Assembly: GCA_023475235.1 (NCBI GenBank)
Contig: JAMCWG010000005.1
Coordinates: 7,046-71,045 of the forward strand
Length of the DNA stretch: 64,000 nt
Direction: 5' to 3'
Source of the DNA: Chloroflexota bacterium
GTDB lineage: Bacteria > Chloroflexota > UBA6077 > FW602-bin22 > JAMCWG01
The position numbers and the translations under genes were made by a program. A model generated the notes under the pieces. The model made no database searches and was not told the origin of the DNA. It was given only the letters and a program-made list of their open reading frames with translations. Shown here one piece after another: positions 24,316-31,603 of this stretch (position 1 is its first letter; every line of letters begins with the position of its first letter).

Positions 24316-25638
24316 TCAAGACCTCTGGTACACGCTTGAAGGGATAGTCCGGTCGTCACTCGCGCGGCTCGATAGGCCAAGCTCCGGCGTGGCGACCGGG
24401 AATATCTTGGCAAATATCGCGAACAGCGCGAAGGGCATCGCCAGGATGGTGAGAGCGCCGAACAGGCCCTCCCGGTAGGTATCGATGTCGACGGGTATGA
24501 TGGGCAGGTCATAGTGCATGAACCCGGCAAACGACAATGAGAATGCCTGGCCGCCGATCACAACGTTCCACCTCATCATGAAGACGCCGAACAGGATCAG
24601 GGCCGTCCCCAGAATGGCCCGGCGTACGGTCAGCCGGGGGATGACCAGGAGGACAAAGGGGACCAGGTTCCCCAGGCCGTATTGCAGAATGAAGATGCTG
24701 GCGAAGTCCTTTCCGTAGATGACCTCACGGAGCACGTCCCACGACTTGACTGCCGTGTAGCCGCGGAAGATCAGGTCGAGGACCTCGAGGCTTATGGCGA
24801 TAATCAGGAAGAACAGCAGGTACTTCGCCGTCATCCGGATAACGTGTATCTCGACGCCCCCAATCTCGGCCCTGGACACGGTGGGATGCGTCTGCCGGTA
24901 CAACAGCGTATCCCTGCGGCGGGATGCCATGAACTTTCGGAACTCCATCATCACGATGTAGGTCAGCATGCAGAGGGCGATGCCGGAGACGATCGCCGAG
25001 CAAATGAAAATGACCGGCATAAGAGGCGTCATCCACAGGGCATTCGCCTTCACCGAGCCGAAGATGAAGCCGGCGTAGCCGTGAAGGAACAACGCCAGGG
25101 GGATGCCCGCCGCGGCCAGGACCTTGATCGCCCTCTCGTCCTTGTGCAGTGCTTCCTCGTCGATGTCGTACGATCCCAGGGTCAGGACGTTGTACAGGAC
25201 CATACCGAACACATCGCTGACGTTCTTGCTGGCCCTGTGCCTGAGCTTCAGGGCCATCTCCACCAGATGCCTCCGGTAGAGGAGCCATAGTTCTGACGCG
25301 ACGAGCGCGCTGTAGGAGAAGAACACGACGCCGAAGGCGGCGATGGCCGAGGTGAAATGCGGGGTGAGAAACACGTTGAAGCCGCGCTCGGGCTGCTGAA
25401 GGTGGAAGAGCAGCGGCATCGGCGCGGCCCCCAGCAGGGCGAACGAGAAGACCAGGGCGAACTGCGCCAGGTCTTTGAGCTGCTTGATGCCGAAGACGTG
25501 GTAAAGCGACGAAAGGACGAATGCCCCAGCAACGAGCCCCGTCATGAACGGGTACATCACGATCTGGATAGCCCAGTAAATATACTCGTTCGGGTAAACG
25601 AACAGTTCTTTTAATGTCCAAAGCTCTCCGTGGACCAT
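24316..25638 (-). CDS. NrfD/PsrC-family polytopic membrane (quinone-interacting) subunit
   Basis: 441 aa starting MVHGELWTLKELFVYPNEYIYWAIQIVMYPFMTGLVAG, with about 10 TM helices. AAGGAGG SD lies inside the end of the upstream FeS gene. The ORF extension to 25935 overlaps that gene and I reject it. Confidence 0.85.
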   Translation of the reverse strand: MVHGELWTLKELFVYPNEYIYWAIQIVMYPFMTGLVAGAFVLSSLYHVFGIKQLKDLAQFALVFSFALLGAAPMPLLFHLQQPERGFNVFLTPHFTSAIAAFGVVFFSYSALVASELWLLYRRHLVEMALKLRHRASKNVSDVFGMVLYNVLTLGSYDIDEEALHKDERAIKVLAAAGIPLALFLHGYAGFIFGSVKANALWMTPLMPVIFICSAIVSGIALCMLTYIVMMEFRKFMASRRRDTLLYRQTHPTVSRAEIGGVEIHVIRMTAKYLLFFLIIAISLEVLDLIFRGYTAVKSWDVLREVIYGKDFASIFILQYGLGNLVPFVLLVIPRLTVRRAILGTALILFGVFMMRWNVVIGGQAFSLSFAGFMHYDLPIIPVDIDTYREGLFGALTILAMPFALFAIFAKIFPVATPELGLSSRASDDRTIPSSVYQRS

Positions 25639-25640
25639 TG

Positions 25641-26429
25641 CTATCTGACCTCCTTGCTCAGGCCCAGGTAGTATGCCTGAGGCTTGGTGCCATACTCGTC
25701 CTTGAGCACCACGACCCGCTGCGTCATTATGGTCTTGGCGACGGGGTCGTTCGGGTCGTTGAGGTTCCCGAACTGGCGGGCGCCGAATGGACAGGCTTGA
25801 ACGCAGGCCGTCTTCAGCCCCTTGGTTATCCGGTGATAGCAGAAGGTGCATTTTCCGGCCGTGCGGGTGCGGGGATCGATGAACCTGGCCCCGTAGGGAC
25901 AGGCCATGATGCAGTAGCCGCAGCCGATGCACCACGACTTGTCCACCAGGACGACACCGTCAGGGGTCCGGTAGGTGGCGCCGACCGGGCACACCTGGAC
26001 GCACGGGGGGTTCTCGCAATGATTGCAGAGCTTGGGGACGAAGAATGCCTTCTTCGTGTCGCTCTTGTCCACCACCTGGTACTTTCCCATCCCGAGATCG
26101 ACCCGCTTGCTGGTGTAGCCGTCGCGGCCGGCCTTGGGTGAATCGGCGAACAGCTCCCCGCCGTTGGTCAGTATGTACCGTTCCACCCACGTGGGAGAAA
26201 TGTTCGCCTCGAAGGGCAGCCCATTCTCCAGCTTGCATGCCTTCACACACAGGCCGCAGCCAACGCACTTCGTGCTGTCGATCAGAAACGCCCAGCGGGC
26301 ATTCTTCTCAGGCTGAACTGCTGCGGCCAGGACCTTCCCCGGGTCCACCATCTCGATTGCTGCCAGGGATATCGCCGCGCCAGCAGCCCCTGCGAGGGAC
26401 GTCTTCAAGAACTCTCTTCTAGTGATCAT
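25641..26429 (-). CDS. Tat-exported 4x[4Fe-4S] ferredoxin-type subunit (NrfC/PsrB/DsrO-like)
   Basis: Twin-arginine leader MITRREFLKTSLAGAAGAA. Four Cys clusters: CVGCGLCVKAC, CNHCENPPCVQVCP, CIGCGYCIMACP, CTFCYHRI...ACVQACP. Confidence 0.9.
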   Translation of the reverse strand: MITRREFLKTSLAGAAGAAISLAAIEMVDPGKVLAAAVQPEKNARWAFLIDSTKCVGCGLCVKACKLENGLPFEANISPTWVERYILTNGGELFADSPKAGRDGYTSKRVDLGMGKYQVVDKSDTKKAFFVPKLCNHCENPPCVQVCPVGATYRTPDGVVLVDKSWCIGCGYCIMACPYGARFIDPRTRTAGKCTFCYHRITKGLKTACVQACPFGARQFGNLNDPNDPVAKTIMTQRVVVLKDEYGTKPQAYYLGLSKEVR

Positions 26430-26893
26430 TTCGCGGCCCCTGGTGCTGGAGAGTGTGGGTTATGGCAGGACGCGCAGTTGACGCCGGGGTTATGGTTGTC
26501 AGGGTCTATACCCTTGATGGCGCTTCTGCCGCTTAACGAGGCAGGAAGATCGGCGTGGCATCGGAGGCAGAGGTCCCGGCTCGTGTCGATGGTGAGCTTG
26601 GGCGGCTCAGACGGATGTTTGATAGCAGGACCGTGGCAATTCTCGCACTGAATGTTGGCGTGAAGGGATGAAGATACCTTCGAGGATTGTTCGGTGTGGC
26701 AACCCTGGCAGTACTCTCGCCCCTGGTACTTGACCTCGACGGACTTTGCCGCCTCCTCGCTGCTTTGGTCGTACCACCCGTATATGTATCCCCCGTCATA
26801 GACTCCGAAGCCCACCGGAACGGCGAAGATCCTTATCGCCAACACAATTGCCACCAGGGCAATAACGACCAGCAATGGTCTTAATACGTGCAT
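26426..26893 (-). CDS. Membrane-anchored tetrahaem cytochrome c (c3-like)
   Basis: N-terminal TM helix plus four CxxCH motifs: CQGCH, CENCH, CLRCH, CASCH. The stop overlaps the FeS gene start by 4 nt. GAGAGAGGG SD. Confidence 0.85.
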   Translation of the reverse strand: MHVLRPLLVVIALVAIVLAIRIFAVPVGFGVYDGGYIYGWYDQSSEEAAKSVEVKYQGREYCQGCHTEQSSKVSSSLHANIQCENCHGPAIKHPSEPPKLTIDTSRDLCLRCHADLPASLSGRSAIKGIDPDNHNPGVNCASCHNPHSPAPGAAK

Positions 26894-27085
26894 CGTTGAC
26901 CCTCTCTCAGTAGAACCGCGCTCCGCCGACCACGGCTGAACTCCGCCTTGCAGTGCGAGAAGTCTACACCCTTAATCGGTCCCCTGATGTGCGAAGCGGG
27001 GCTCCGAAGCTAGATTCGTGTGAATGTTCTCATCCACCCTCTTCGAACTGTTTTCCGTCATAACGACGGTTGGTTGTACGCCAGA

Positions 27086-27670
27086 CTACCAGGTCTCGCT
27101 GGGCCGTAAGGCTCCCGGGATGGGGCGCTTTGACGGGACACCCTTCTCGTTCGCGTTCACCTTCTGGCTGAGGAGCTCCCAGGTACCGTCGTTTGCCACG
27201 TTATGACAACTGAAGCAGCCCCCGTGGTACTCCTCGTTGAAAGGCGTGCTGAAGAGATGCGCCGGATGGACGATGTCTCGGAGGGAAAGGGGAGCGAAGG
27301 CGCCCTTTCCGACCTGGTCATCGACGCCCGGCTTATGGCACTGGAGGCAGTCCGCGACCCCCGACTGGAAATTCAGTGGTGCCCCTCCCGGCAGGGCCGC
27401 TGGATGCTGCTTCCCTTCACCACCGGCCGCGGTGCGCTCCTGGGCCTCCCAGAGCAGCGAGTACTTGCCATCGGCGTCGATACCACCCGCTATATGGCAG
27501 GCAGTGCATCCCCGGCGCGGTGCTTCGGCCGCATCGGCTGCTTGCGCGAGCTGGTCATCCGGGTTCTGGCCCGCCTCGTTGCCGGCCGCCACGCTGATCG
27601 CCAGGGCCAGGGCTGCCGCTAAACCTAGAGCCACGCCGACGACAATGAACTTTTGCCTACTTGTCAGCAT
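27086..27670 (-). CDS. Membrane-anchored trihaem cytochrome c
   Basis: N-terminal TM helix (FIVVGVALGLAAALALAISVAA) plus CTACH, CLQCH, CFSCH. The ATG at 27670 is preceded by GGAGGA; the TTG at 27682 overlaps that SD and I reject it. Confidence 0.8.
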   Translation of the reverse strand: MLTSRQKFIVVGVALGLAAALALAISVAAGNEAGQNPDDQLAQAADAAEAPRRGCTACHIAGGIDADGKYSLLWEAQERTAAGGEGKQHPAALPGGAPLNFQSGVADCLQCHKPGVDDQVGKGAFAPLSLRDIVHPAHLFSTPFNEEYHGGCFSCHNVANDGTWELLSQKVNANEKGVPSKRPIPGALRPSETW

Positions 27671-28261
27671 CGAATCCTCCAATGTTTTATGGGCTCTGAA
27701 TACGGTGACTCGTAGATGGCCTCACCCGAGGCCGTGCCTCGCCCGTCAGAGAGGTTGGGGAACACTCACCGAAGGCGCAACCGACGGCGCCAGGGCCGCC
27801 GGCGAGCACCACGGCCTTCCTCAGTTGTTCGCGGTGTCCCCAAGGCTCCAGTCCTCGTCAGTATGTACACCGGTGGCGGTCTCGATGCCTCACCCCCTTC
27901 CTGGCCGGGAATTACGGCGGCTCAGACCCATTGTGCGGCCTTGCGCTTACCGGCACGATGATGGCCCTGCTGCCGCCATCTGCTTGCCCGGCGGCGACGG
28001 CTCCAGGCTCTATACACATCAACCCTCCCAGCAACTTCCGACGCTGGGACAGCCGGTGTCGCCGGGTGCCCGGCCATTCCGCCAGGTGGCGCGAAACGCC
28101 GATTTAGACATAACTAAGCCGGTGTTTCATTCACCTCTCGGCCCTAGTTTAGGGGCTTTCGTGGTCTTTTAATATACGTCAGGTAGTGGAACCGAATCTG
28201 ATGACCGATGGAATATTGAGGAACAAACAGGGGAGCATGCCGTATACAAACAGTGTCATAT

Positions 28262-28281
28262 GTCCTCACATATGTGAGGAC
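28262..28281. promoter_or_regulatory. Perfect 20-bp palindrome (operator or terminator stem-loop)
   Basis: GTCCTCACATATGTGAGGAC reads identically on both strands. It lies 42 nt downstream of the response-regulator stop, at the start of the 640-nt gap before the cytochrome operon. Confidence 0.35.
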
Positions 28282-28322
28282 TACGTTACCCCATTTGATG
28301 GGGGGTATTTCGCCGCTTTCAA

Positions 28323-28982
28323 TCAGCTTTCGAGAATAATGAACCCACGCCGTATCGCGTACTTGACCAGCTCGGTCCGGCTGTGCAGACCCAGCTTCGC
28401 CATGATCCGGGCACGATGGCTCTGCACGGTGCTGACGCCGAGCTTCAAGACGTCGGCAATCTCCTGATTGCTGTGGCCCTCGGCGATGAGAGTCAGGACT
28501 TCCCGCTCCCGGTCGGTCAGGCCATCGTGCTGCTCCTGGTCGTGCTCATTTCCCACGCGCTCCAGGTAGTCGCTGAGGAGCTTCTTCGCCATAGAGGGAT
28601 AGAGGTATACGTTGCCCTGAGAGACGGCCCGCACGGCTGAGAGCAGCTCGTTGGCCGAGCCGCCCTTGACGAAGTAGCCGGATGCGCCGGCGTGGATCAT
28701 CTGAAAGAAGTACTCGTTGTTCTCGTGCATTGTCAGGACCAGGATCCTGACTTCGGGGACCTGATGCTTTATCTGCCGGGCGGCCTCCAGTCCACTCATG
28801 CCCGGCATAGTGATATCCATCATAACCACGTCTGGCTTGAGCTTCAGGGTCTTGGCAACGGTCTCCCGGCCTTCCCTGGCTTCCCCCACCACCTCGATAT
28901 CGGGCTGGCCGTCGAGGATCACGTGTAGACCCTCGCGGACGATGGAGTGATCATCAGCTATCAGAACCCGTATCTTGCCCAC
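28323..28982 (-). CDS. NarL/FixJ (LuxR-type HTH) response regulator
   Basis: Receiver domain IRVLIADDHSIVREGL ... PDVVMMDITMPGMSG. C-terminal LuxR HTH LTDREREVLTLIAEGHSNQEIADVLKLGVSTVQSHRARIMAKLG. The GTG at 28982 is preceded by AAGGAGGG with an 8-nt spacer. Confidence 0.9.
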   Translation of the reverse strand: MGKIRVLIADDHSIVREGLHVILDGQPDIEVVGEAREGRETVAKTLKLKPDVVMMDITMPGMSGLEAARQIKHQVPEVRILVLTMHENNEYFFQMIHAGASGYFVKGGSANELLSAVRAVSQGNVYLYPSMAKKLLSDYLERVGNEHDQEQHDGLTDREREVLTLIAEGHSNQEIADVLKLGVSTVQSHRARIMAKLGLHSRTELVKYAIRRGFIILES

Positions 28983-29034
28983 CGCAACAACCCTCCTTCT
29001 GGCCTTGTGCCGCTCCAAATGCCCCCCGCTCGTC

Positions 29035-31359
29035 TCACTGGAGCGAACTATCGAACGGGACCTCTACGGTTAGCCGCGTGCCGCGTCCCGGCTGCGACTT
29101 GATATCGAAAGTGCCGCCCAGCAGGGTGACCCTTTCCCGAATGCCCAGCAGCCCCAGCGACTGCGGACGGCTGCCGGGCCTCAGCACATCGTCGACGTCG
29201 AAGCCGCTGCCGTCGTCTTCGACCACGGTCGTTATCCTGCCGCTGCCCGCTTCCAGGCGGATATGGACGCGGCGGGCGCCGGCGTGCCTGGTAGTATTGT
29301 GAATCGCCTCTTGAACGATTCGAAACAGCGCCGTCTCTACGGAGGGGTCCAGCCGCCCGCCGATGCCCCCGGCCTCGAACTGAAGATGGATGCTGCGGGC
29401 GTCGAGGTAGCTTTGGGCGTAGGACCGGACGGCGGCCACCAGGCCCAGGTCATCGAGGACGGAAGGGCGAAGGCCCAACGTCAGCTTCCGGAGCTCGTCC
29501 AGGGCCTGTACAGCGCACGCCCTGGCGCTGGCCATCCGCTGCTTAAGCTGCGCTTGCCTCGTCGATATGGCCGCCTCCACGGACTCGATGTTCATTATCA
29601 GGCCGGTCAGCGTCTGCCCGAACTCGTCATGTAGCTCCCTGGCGATGCGCTTGCGCTCTTCCTCCTGAGCGCTGATGACCTTGCCCAGCAACTGGCCTCG
29701 CAGCTCCTCTTTCTCCCTCGCCTCCTCGTAAAGAATCGCGTTGTCGATTGCCAGGCCCATATGGTAGCCAACGGCATCGAGAATGGCAAGCTCGGTCGGG
29801 GTGATGTGCTCCTGATCGGAGTAGGCGATGTTCATAATGCCCATGACCCTCTCCTTCGACTTGAGGGGCACGCTTACGAAGCCGCCGATATCCTCTCCTG
29901 CCGCCCTGGCGTCGCTCAGCACGGAACATTGGTCGGCCTGGATGACTACCATCGTCCGCCCCGACTGCAGCGCCTGGTTGCAGGCGCAGGTGGAGTTAGA
30001 GTAGAGCGAATCCCGGCAGTTGAAGGCCGATAATGGGCCGGTCGAGCTAGTTATCTTGCACTCCTTTCGGTCCGGGTCTGTGAGGAACACGCAGCCCCCC
30101 TTCCCTCCGGTGACGTCCAAGACTTTGGCAATGGCAGTCGCCAGCACGTCTTCGAGCTTGAGCGACTGGCTGATGGCGACCGCGACCGAGTTGAGGGCGG
30201 AGAGGGCCTCGTTCCGCCTGACGAGCTCATCCCTCGACCTGGCCAGTTGCTGGGTCATCGTTCGAAACGCCGCGCTCAGCTGGCCTATCTCGTCGTGCCG
30301 CTCCAGGGGCATCGGCACGCTGAAGTCGCCCATAGCCAGCCGGGCCGAGCTGACGGTCAACTGCCGGATGGGCTTGACGATCCGCTGTGTCACGACCCAG
30401 GCCGCCAGAAGGCCGCTCACCAGCACGATTGTCCCCAGCAGAAGGAACCGCTGCTTCAATTGCTCTGCCGGGGCCAGGGCCTCCTCCTCGGCCTGCCGGA
30501 TGACCACGCCCCAGGACGCGGTGGACAGTGGAGCGAAGGCGAGGACGTCCTGGCGGCGCAGCGGCTGGTCTCCCGCCGTGTGGCAGCGGTGGCAGGTGCC
30601 CCGCGTCGCCTGGCCCTCCTGGATAAGCTGGGCGAAGCGGCCGGGGTGATCGCTCAGCTCAAAGGCCGCCGCGCGCTGCCCCGGCTCCGACCGGGCCAGG
30701 ACGACCCCGTTCTTGTCCACGATCTCGGTGTAGCCCGTCTTGCCGGGCGTTATCGGCTTGGTCAGCCCGCTGATGGTGGAGCGGCTGATGTCGATAAGGG
30801 AGCCCAGCGCGCCGATGCTGCGTCCATCGCCATCGAGTATCGGGGCCACGGCCATCACCACTGGCCCGTCAATTGAGAAGCGGGCCATCAGGCCGGACAC
30901 CATTGGCGACTTCGCCGCCAGAGCCTGTTTCACCTCCTGGTAATCGGACGTCCCCGGCTCGATGAGCGTGTTGTCTTCCGGGTCAACGGCGAGCAGTTGG
31001 CCGTCTCCGTCGAAGAGCAGCACATTTCGCACGGAAATCCCCGACTTGCCCAGCAGGGTCCGCAGGGAAGCGGCGACCGGCACGAATCGCCCGGTATCGG
31101 GAAGGCTGCCCCCAAAATCGGCGGCGTTCTCGAGCTGGACTTTGATGTAGGTCAGGGTCTCGTCGGTATGGCTGGCCACCAGCCGGGCCACGGTGAGCCG
31201 CTCATCGAGGGTCCGCTCGGTGCTGGCGTCGATGGACTGCATGCCCAGGAAGCCGAACAAGCCCAGTCCGATAACCAGTCCTACTAAAACGGCGAGGCCA
31301 ACTTTCTTCTGCAGGGTTGATTGGCCCAGGAAAGGCATAGAGGAAAACGCTACGGCCAT
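29035..31359 (-). CDS. Sensor histidine kinase: TM, extracytoplasmic Cache-like domain with CxxCH, TM, HAMP, GAF, HisKA_3, HATPase
   Basis: Two TM helices flank a domain of about 290 aa. HAMP (IVKPIRQLTVSSARLAMGDF), GAF, H-box ARELHDEFGQTLTGL (NarX/DesK type) and G-boxes DDGSGF / GLLGIRERV. The ATG at 31359 is preceded by GGGGAGAG. Confidence 0.85.
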   Translation of the reverse strand: MAVAFSSMPFLGQSTLQKKVGLAVLVGLVIGLGLFGFLGMQSIDASTERTLDERLTVARLVASHTDETLTYIKVQLENAADFGGSLPDTGRFVPVAASLRTLLGKSGISVRNVLLFDGDGQLLAVDPEDNTLIEPGTSDYQEVKQALAAKSPMVSGLMARFSIDGPVVMAVAPILDGDGRSIGALGSLIDISRSTISGLTKPITPGKTGYTEIVDKNGVVLARSEPGQRAAAFELSDHPGRFAQLIQEGQATRGTCHRCHTAGDQPLRRQDVLAFAPLSTASWGVVIRQAEEEALAPAEQLKQRFLLLGTIVLVSGLLAAWVVTQRIVKPIRQLTVSSARLAMGDFSVPMPLERHDEIGQLSAAFRTMTQQLARSRDELVRRNEALSALNSVAVAISQSLKLEDVLATAIAKVLDVTGGKGGCVFLTDPDRKECKITSSTGPLSAFNCRDSLYSNSTCACNQALQSGRTMVVIQADQCSVLSDARAAGEDIGGFVSVPLKSKERVMGIMNIAYSDQEHITPTELAILDAVGYHMGLAIDNAILYEEAREKEELRGQLLGKVISAQEEERKRIARELHDEFGQTLTGLIMNIESVEAAISTRQAQLKQRMASARACAVQALDELRKLTLGLRPSVLDDLGLVAAVRSYAQSYLDARSIHLQFEAGGIGGRLDPSVETALFRIVQEAIHNTTRHAGARRVHIRLEAGSGRITTVVEDDGSGFDVDDVLRPGSRPQSLGLLGIRERVTLLGGTFDIKSQPGRGTRLTVEVPFDSSLQ

Positions 31360-31603
31360 GGCTCTCCCCACATTCTCTTGCCACCTTATCGCACCACTAT
31401 GCCGGTACGTAAAACCAGTACCTGCGGTGCAACCAACCATCGAAGCGCAAGGCCCTTACACTAGCGGTAGCTTACCGCAACAGAGTGAATGTGTCCATAT
31501 CCCGGCGGGAGAAAGCTCCACCAAACACCCGATGCCGGTGCCTTCGGGCGTCTAGCAGCCCTCCAGAAGAGGCCTGCCCAAGGAGAGGCCGGGCTTCTCC
31601 GGT

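Follow-up and report, generated by a model that had tools for sequence, protein, structure and literature searches.

The gene on the minus strand at positions 29035–31440 of a 64,000-nt stretch of Chloroflexota DNA (contig JAMCWG010000005.1; the whole stretch is called the window below) encodes a sensor histidine kinase whose extracytoplasmic domain probably binds a single c-type haem covalently. This haem would be held by Cys283 and Cys286 with His287 as iron ligand, and the domain would sense on behalf of an adjacent NarL-type response regulator and cytochrome module. The kinase is probably a haem c Cache sensor built in a dCache_1 scaffold, and represents a large Chloroflexota family that is undescribed in the literature searched.

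Nucleotides 30580–30594, read on the minus strand as TGC CAC CGC TGC CAC, encode Cys283-His284-Arg285-Cys286-His287 of the longest open reading frame (ORF). Translation of this ORF bears out the CHRCH motif and the peptide QEGQATRGTCHRCHTAGDQP quoted in a preliminary description of the sequence. The true start codon is probably that of Met28 (nt 31359) or Met35 (nt 31338), because the N-termini of homologous proteins fall approximately 34 residues past the first ATG and a GGAG-like sequence precedes the Met28 codon. Pfam matches and hydropathy gave the domain order as first transmembrane (TM) helix, dCache_1, second TM helix, HAMP, GAF, HisKA_3 and HATPase_c, and the H box (ELHDE, containing His604), N box and G box of the kinase core are all intact in sequence. 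The dCache_1 family (PF02743) matched residues 75–314 with 59.2 bits, and with 61.9 bits in a second run, against a cut-off of 45. A hydropathy scan of the kinase found exactly two TM segments, residues 47–65 and 332–350. Basic residues flank these segments at the N-terminus (QKK) and after TM2 (QRIVKPIRQ, followed by the HAMP domain), and both outer flanks are acidic. Given that there are only two TM segments, that their flanks follow the positive-inside rule and that a HAMP domain follows TM2, residues 67–330, including CHRCH, are extracytoplasmic and lie on the side of the membrane where haem c is attached. The topology described earlier, with two helices bracketing a Cache-like domain and the motif outside the membrane and not in the cytoplasm, is upheld by the hydropathy, the charge rule and the dCache_1 match; the size of about 290 residues given to that domain was slightly too high, the span between the helices being approximately 264 residues.

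A word-indexed homologue search with the sensor region as query listed 120 homologues with a sensor identity of 38–59%, and a single CxxCH was present at the equivalent position in every one of them (120/120). Wherever their source was named, these were metagenome-assembled genomes of Chloroflexota or Dehalococcoidia. Since a shared-word index could bias such a search, an index-free HMMER search was run against 1.84 billion cluster representatives, and matched 862 proteins at E ≤ 1e-3, 382 at E ≤ 1e-10 and 116 at E ≤ 1e-30. Among the best 150 matches, CxxCH was found in the same column in 117 of 145 new representatives, at 28–53% identity. Alignment of the non-fragment family members to the family hidden Markov model placed C..CH in the same columns in 239 of 263 sequences (28–59% identity). 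Both cysteines and the histidine, whose conservation in orthologues had been named as a check in the preliminary description, are therefore kept down to approximately 28% identity.

The odds of a CxxCH arising by chance in a domain of this size, estimated from typical Cys and His frequencies, are roughly 1e-3, and a chance origin was ruled out by the conservation in 120/120 listed and 117/145 new homologues. That the motif is functionless, whether accidental or vestigial, is extremely improbable: loss or decay of the motif is seen in a few relatives, as in the CHRCR of P0149, yet it is kept in the 239 aligned sequences while neighbouring loop residues vary. A tree was built from the alignment without the motif columns, and the distribution of the motif on it required six changes, against a mean of 22.6 after shuffling and with none of 500 shuffles as low, and at least three of these gains or losses are forced by well-supported branches. 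Because presence is so strongly clustered on a motif-free tree, the motif is inherited in large clades with a few losses, of which P0149 is one example.

The consensus of the motif is C-H-x-C-H. Residues equivalent to Cys283, Cys286 and His287 define the motif-bearing group and so occur in all 239 of its members, and the second position (His284) is His in 96% of them and otherwise Tyr, Phe, Asn or Thr. Three positions elsewhere in the domain share with His284 a conservation that is confined to the motif-bearing group: Arg315 is found in 92% of motif-bearing members versus 8% of motif-less relatives, Asp264 in 91% versus 21% and Glu239 in 82% versus 17%. His265, within SDHPGRF, is conserved in both groups, occurring in 95% of motif-bearing members and 88% of motif-less relatives. 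Motif-less relatives have an acidic, variable loop in place of the motif, and the segment between the equivalents of Ile273 and Ala301 has a median length of 24 residues in these proteins versus 27 in those with the motif. The geometry of a CxxCH turn keeps His284 (30589–30591, minus strand) from serving as distal ligand to the iron of its own haem. This near-invariant residue could coordinate the haem of the partner protomer in the kinase dimer, contact a propionate or be involved in ligand chemistry.

The structure of residues 35–345 was modelled with AlphaFold2 from an 82-sequence alignment (fragment number + 34 gives the protein number), with a mean predicted local distance difference test (pLDDT) score of 87.5 and a predicted template modelling score of 0.83. 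In the model, a long TM1/stalk helix is followed by two PAS-like modules, first the distal and then the proximal one, and by a C-terminal helix that leads into TM2; the predicted fold is that of an ordinary double-Cache domain. In fragment numbering, the proximal module consists of strands 203–208, 212–216, 245–250, 263–270 and 276–283 and a helix at 232–241, followed by the C-terminal helix. The motif (fragment residues 249–253) is predicted to start at the end of strand β3’ and to run into the β3’–β4’ loop of this module. The best Foldseek matches in the PDB were cofactor-free dCache proteins, namely PctA/B/C, TlpA, Mlp37, Mlp24, Tlp3, KinD and rpHK1S-Z16, with E-values of 1e-10 to 6e-12 (5e-11 for PctA and TlpA), and the family sequence profile retrieved the same proteins. 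Conservation within the sensor is highest in the proximal module, where TGYxEIVD, SDH (His265), CHxCH and WGVxIRQ (Arg315) are located. Nearly all invariant sensor residues lie at 235–320 and the distal module is far less conserved, the reverse of ligand-diversified dCache receptors in which the distal pocket senses.

The features of the locus are collected in Table 1.

Table 1. Features of the sensor kinase and of the genes downstream of it, in window coordinates
Feature	Position	Strand	Basis
Sensor histidine kinase gene, longest ORF 801 residues	29035..31440	-	ORF list, translation, Pfam architecture
TM1, residues 47–65	31246..31302	-	Kyte-Doolittle peak 2.61; N-side charge +2/0, outer side 2+/4-
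Extracytoplasmic dCache_1 sensor domain, residues 67–330	30451..31242	-	Pfam PF02743, AlphaFold model, Foldseek
Membrane-proximal Cache module, residues ~233–320	30481..30744	-	Model secondary structure and conservation
His265 (SDHPGRF), candidate distal ligand or pocket residue	30646..30648	-	β2’–α’ loop in model, conservation
CHRCH, Cys283–His287, candidate covalent haem c site with His287 as proximal ligand	30580..30594	-	Sequence
Arg315, candidate haem-propionate partner	30496..30498	-	Group-specific conservation
TM2, residues 332–350	30391..30447	-	Kyte-Doolittle peak 2.49; cytoplasmic flank +3/0
HAMP, residues 350–399	30244..30393	-	Pfam PF00672, E 2.8e-14
Cytoplasmic GAF with five co-conserved cysteines, residues 428–566	29743..30159	-	Pfam GAF_2/GAF
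HisKA_3 dimerisation/phosphoacceptor domain, residues 595–662, His604 in ELHDE box	29455..29658	-	Pfam PF07730, E 1.1e-17
HATPase_c catalytic domain, residues 702–797	29050..29337	-	Pfam PF02518, E 9.5e-15
NarL/LuxR-type cognate response regulator (receiver and GerE helix-turn-helix)	28323..29018	-	Pfam Response_reg E 1e-27, GerE E 4e-20
ORF-free spacer of 640 nt, presumed promoter/operator region	27683..28322	-	ORF list
Membrane-anchored trihaem cytochrome c, 3 CxxCH	27086..27682	-	Translation, weak cytochrome Pfam matches
Tetrahaem cytochrome c (c3/c7/NrfB-like), 4 CxxCH	26426..26893	-	Pfam Paired_CXXCH_1, Cytochrom_c3_2
NrfC/DsrO/TtrB-like 4Fe-4S protein with twin-arginine translocation (Tat) signal	25641..26429	-	Pfam Fer4_11, TAT_signal
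NrfD/PsrC-type integral membrane quinone-interacting subunit	24316..25935	-	Pfam NrfD E 1.8e-35, residues 117–465

The claim that the kinase lies upstream of a multihaem cytochrome/NrfCD operon stands, with a GerE-type regulator, two multihaem cytochromes, a Tat-exported NrfC-like protein and NrfD following it on the same strand. The true start of NrfD is probably further downstream than that of its longest ORF, because the latter overlaps the NrfC gene. Among NCBIfam models, the NrfC-like protein scored 195 bits with DsrO (cut-off 200) and 203 bits with TtrB. The placement of a trihaem cytochrome upstream of NrfC and NrfD recalls the DsrJOP layout, and no catalytic subunit adjoins the module (24316–27682, minus strand). 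Within the spacer, a perfect 20-bp palindrome, GTCCTCACATATGTGAGGAC, is located at 28262–28281, 42 nt past the stop codon of the regulator. It is unique in the genome even at three mismatches, no regulon motif being derivable from it, and might serve either as the stem of a terminator or as an operator of NarL type. A terminator scan gave one weak terminator-like site, inside the regulator gene.

This gene order recurs within the family. In four homologues on long contigs, the kinase and a GerE regulator precede redox genes, with downstream sets of NrfC, NrfD and a cytochrome; of NrfC, NrfD, a molybdopterin oxidoreductase and a multihaem cytochrome; or of a class I cytochrome c. A scan of GTDB species genomes returned 70 related loci, 67 of them motif-bearing, and all are from Chloroflexota (Dehalococcoidia, Anaerolineae and others) except for three records labelled ‘uncultured bacterium’ and one Sphingomonadaceae. 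The latter (L077, JBLNDL010000014.1) is a CYDCH member on a 112-kb contig of a metagenome-assembled genome carrying that label, and the contig could be mis-binned or horizontally transferred. A regulator is located directly downstream of the kinase in 51/67 motif-bearing loci. When the 39 loci with at least 5 kb of downstream sequence were inspected over 8 kb on the same strand, 17 had an NrfC-like gene and 10 an ORF with at least three CxxCH motifs. The expectation for NrfC, derived from eight NrfC-like ORFs in the 2.85-Mb genome to which the window belongs, is approximately 1.2% per locus, and the enrichment is large even with the inflation of its nominal significance discussed below.

The same genome encodes three CHRCH paralogues (contigs C165, C100 and C113) and one motif-less relative (C63), and four of its six ORFs with at least three CxxCH motifs adjoin kinases of this family. 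The paralogue at C100:4059-10874 (L004) has a HisKA-type core and is divergent from genes for a pentahaem cytochrome, an 825-residue protein with a Tat signal, which we presume to be a molybdopterin oxidoreductase, and an NrfC-like protein. At C63:1361-7187 (L006), a NarL-type regulator and then a close paralogue of the trihaem cytochrome in the window (E 2e-84) come after the motif-less kinase. Linkage to respiratory cytochromes is a property of the wider kinase family, since the motif-less kinase on C63 also adjoins such a cytochrome.

Several observations weigh against a haem-sensing kinase that controls the neighbouring operon. Every family member found comes from an uncultured metagenome-assembled genome. 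Fragment residues 251–260, just past the motif, have the lowest confidence of the model (pLDDT 57), as would be expected if a cofactor is missing from it, and the best candidate for a distal ligand, His265, is equally conserved in motif-less relatives. The 640-nt spacer parts the two-component pair from the cytochrome operon, and a scan of this spacer for the sigma-70 consensus found none, with no promoter or operator identified. The nominal binomial p of approximately 1e-22 for NrfC linkage is overstated as the loci are related. Finally, neither PF01578 (CcmC/CcmF/CcsA) nor PF05140 (ResB) had a match in the assembly that holds the window (74.8% complete, 196 contigs). PF01578 is present in 19 of 21 genomes of the same order and the genome itself encodes at least six multihaem cytochrome ORFs, which would be useless without maturation; for these reasons we assume that its maturation genes most likely lie in the missing quarter of the assembly. 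All six same-order genomes with the kinase family also have PF01578, and G008, which is without PF01578, is also without the family, although this co-occurrence is powerless as a test since nearly all relatives carry PF01578.

The same motif might instead form a haem-free thiol or metal site, in which Cys283 and Cys286 act as a reversible disulfide redox switch or, together with His284 and His287, bind Cu or Zn as the sensed ligand. Such a site is unlikely. An exported, accessible CxxCH is a substrate for cytochrome c maturation System I or II, and while CxxC motifs are classic disulfide and metal sites, a disulfide switch has no need of the His that follows the second Cys in all 239 motif-bearing members and that fits haem c attachment. 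The near-invariance of His284 offers four potential metal ligands in C-H-x-C-H, but Arg315, which is specific to the putative haem group, suits a propionate partner. The lack of detected maturation genes in the incomplete assembly would favour a haem-free site, and is to be set against the tight linkage of the family to c-type cytochrome genes and to Ccm/Ccs lineages. Likewise, the loop of motif-less relatives is nearly as long, so that no cytochrome-like insert was imported, yet the motif occupies the same β3–β4 position as in proven haem c Cache domains (10.64898/2026.02.01.703092).

A mechanism can be proposed for a covalent haem c in the sensor. The sensor domain would be threaded through the membrane unfolded, leaving its CxxCH accessible to the cytochrome c maturation system, and haem would be attached in the β3–β4 loop of the proximal module with His287 as the proximal ligand. 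The putative haem pocket would be formed by the β2’–α’ loop (His265 and Asp264), the β3’–β4’ loop and strand β5’, on which Arg315 is a plausible propionate partner. The haem would then change either through oxidation or reduction by an extracytoplasmic electron-transfer chain or through binding or loss of nitric oxide (NO), O2, sulfide or nitrite. Given that the pocket adjoins the helix continuing into TM2, transmission to the output could be direct, with the change at the haem shifting this helix in a piston or scissor movement. From TM2 the signal would reach the HisKA_3/HATPase core by way of HAMP and GAF. Phosphate would then be transferred from the kinase to the adjacent NarL-type regulator, and the phosphorylated regulator may act on the spacer upstream of the operon encoding the trihaem and tetrahaem cytochromes, NrfC and NrfD. 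Redox state is slightly favoured over gas or anion binding as the signal, because the family is wired to cytochromes and varied quinone-linked NrfCD modules and not to one substrate-specific reductase. By analogy with the Cache_heme receptor of P. azotoformans, NO or another small ligand would be nearly as likely.

A haem could also be present in a structural or electron-relay role, with the distal Cache pocket binding the real signal and the GAF domain perhaps adding a cytoplasmic redox input. Although the distal module binds the ligand in the characterised dCache_1 receptors PctA, Mlp37 and Tlp3, the concentration of invariant residues in the proximal module and the position of the motif beside the output helix make this role improbable. 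The GAF cysteines Cys450, Cys475, Cys485, Cys487 and Cys505 (contexts GGC, FNC, CAC and QCS) are conserved in an all-or-none manner: 63 of 150 full-length relatives have the complete set of five and 74 have none, and every one of the 63 is a HisKA_3 kinase. This five-cysteine GAF may be a cytoplasmic metal or iron–sulfur (Fe-S) site, for which the chloroplast sensor kinase CSK and its cyanobacterial homologues, where a GAF-bound Fe-S cluster senses redox state, provide a precedent (PMC6949291). However, family members without a GAF domain (approximately 600 residues) retain CxxCH.

No family of bacterial extracellular sensors is larger than that of the Cache domains, which were regarded as free of cofactors until the sCache_heme preprints of 2026 (10.64898/2026.02.01.703092; 10.64898/2026.05.25.727664), whose authors propose that haem c entered the Cache fold once, via a cytochrome-derived insert, and consider in-situ evolution of a CxxCH unlikely. 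In the present family the loop of the motif-less sisters is only approximately three residues shorter, which points to in-situ evolution of CxxCH or to a very small replacement. It is quite possible, if short of probable, that haem c was recruited into Cache a second time and independently, by a CxxCH arising in an existing proximal dCache_1 loop with no cytochrome insert, and that this founded a large, near-exclusively Chloroflexota family of sensors over NrfCD/cytochrome modules, one subfamily of which, with its five-cysteine and possibly Fe-S GAF, would compare redox on both sides of the membrane. If so, a dCache_1 family that acquired CxxCH in a loop it already had, and whose sister clades are free of haem, would serve as a natural counter-example to a single, insert-borne entry and as a tractable system for studying how a ligand sensor becomes a cofactor sensor. 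It would also locate a sensing cofactor in the dCache module nearest the membrane, the role of which is under debate, and give a handle on the regulation of NrfCD/cytochrome modules in uncultured subsurface Chloroflexota.

The nearest known sensors in concept are those of the sCache_heme or Cache_heme family (DUF3365, Tll0287-like, PF11845), which includes GSU0582 and GSU0935 of Geobacter sulfurreducens, Tll0287 of Thermosynechococcus and a Cache_heme-HAMP NO receptor of Pseudomonas azotoformans (10.64898/2026.02.01.703092; 10.64898/2026.05.25.727664). These have a single Cache module with CxxCH on a short helical insertion between β3 and β4, and are reported as rare or absent in Chloroflexota (10.64898/2026.02.01.703092; 10.64898/2026.05.25.727664). 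The preliminary description had considered haem c sensor domains rare in kinases, which is corrected by the thousands of sCache_heme members, many of them fused to kinases (10.64898/2026.02.01.703092). It had also named PAS-type chemoreceptor domains of Geobacter as the established examples of covalent haem c in periplasmic sensors; the present domain is not of that family but a dCache_1 with its motif in the proximal module. Membership of sCache_heme was rejected, given a double Cache instead of a single module and no match to PF11845, either for the whole kinase (E ≤ 0.01) or for the sensor or proximal module alone (E ≤ 10). A six-frame search of the genome with PF11845 gave no member, and the family profile had no match to 5B82, 3B47 or 3B42 at E ≤ 10. 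A literature search surfaced only the sCache_heme work, with no description of a haem-bearing double-Cache domain.

The two families share an extracytoplasmic Cache fold with a strictly conserved CxxCH between β3 and β4 of a Cache module, joined by a TM helix and HAMP to outputs that include histidine kinases, and both are probably redox or gas sensors. They differ in that the kinase described here has a double Cache with the motif in the proximal module, a C-H-x-C-H consensus and a loop only approximately three residues longer than in motif-less relatives; no α-helical insert was predicted in its β3’–β4’ segment, the region where pLDDT falls to 57. The family is moreover found in Chloroflexota, where sCache_heme is reported to be rare or absent. 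With PctA/B/C, Mlp37, Mlp24, Tlp3, TlpA, KinD and rpHK1S-Z16 the sensor shares the dCache_1 fold, the Pfam family and a site between two TM helices. These receptors lack CxxCH, and their ligands are amino acids, amines or organic acids held by non-covalent binding, as a rule in the distal module, whereas the sensor described here has a conserved proximal module and a CxxCH. CSK resembles the kinase in being a redox-linked histidine kinase with a cysteine-conserved GAF, a likeness that applies to the five-cysteine GAF only and is founded on the GAF fold, an Fe-S cluster in the present kinase being purely conjectural. Among NCBIfam models there was none specific to the sensor domain, and NarQ and NarX gave partial matches to the kinase core only, with scores far below their equivalog cut-offs. 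The arrangement of the locus nonetheless recalls NarX/NarQ–NarL, with a HisKA_3 and HATPase_c core, a NarL/GerE regulator and adjacent respiratory redox genes. NarX and NarQ, however, sense nitrate and nitrite by a four-helix periplasmic domain with a P-box and without Cache or haem, whereas the input of the kinase described here is a double-Cache domain that probably carries haem c.

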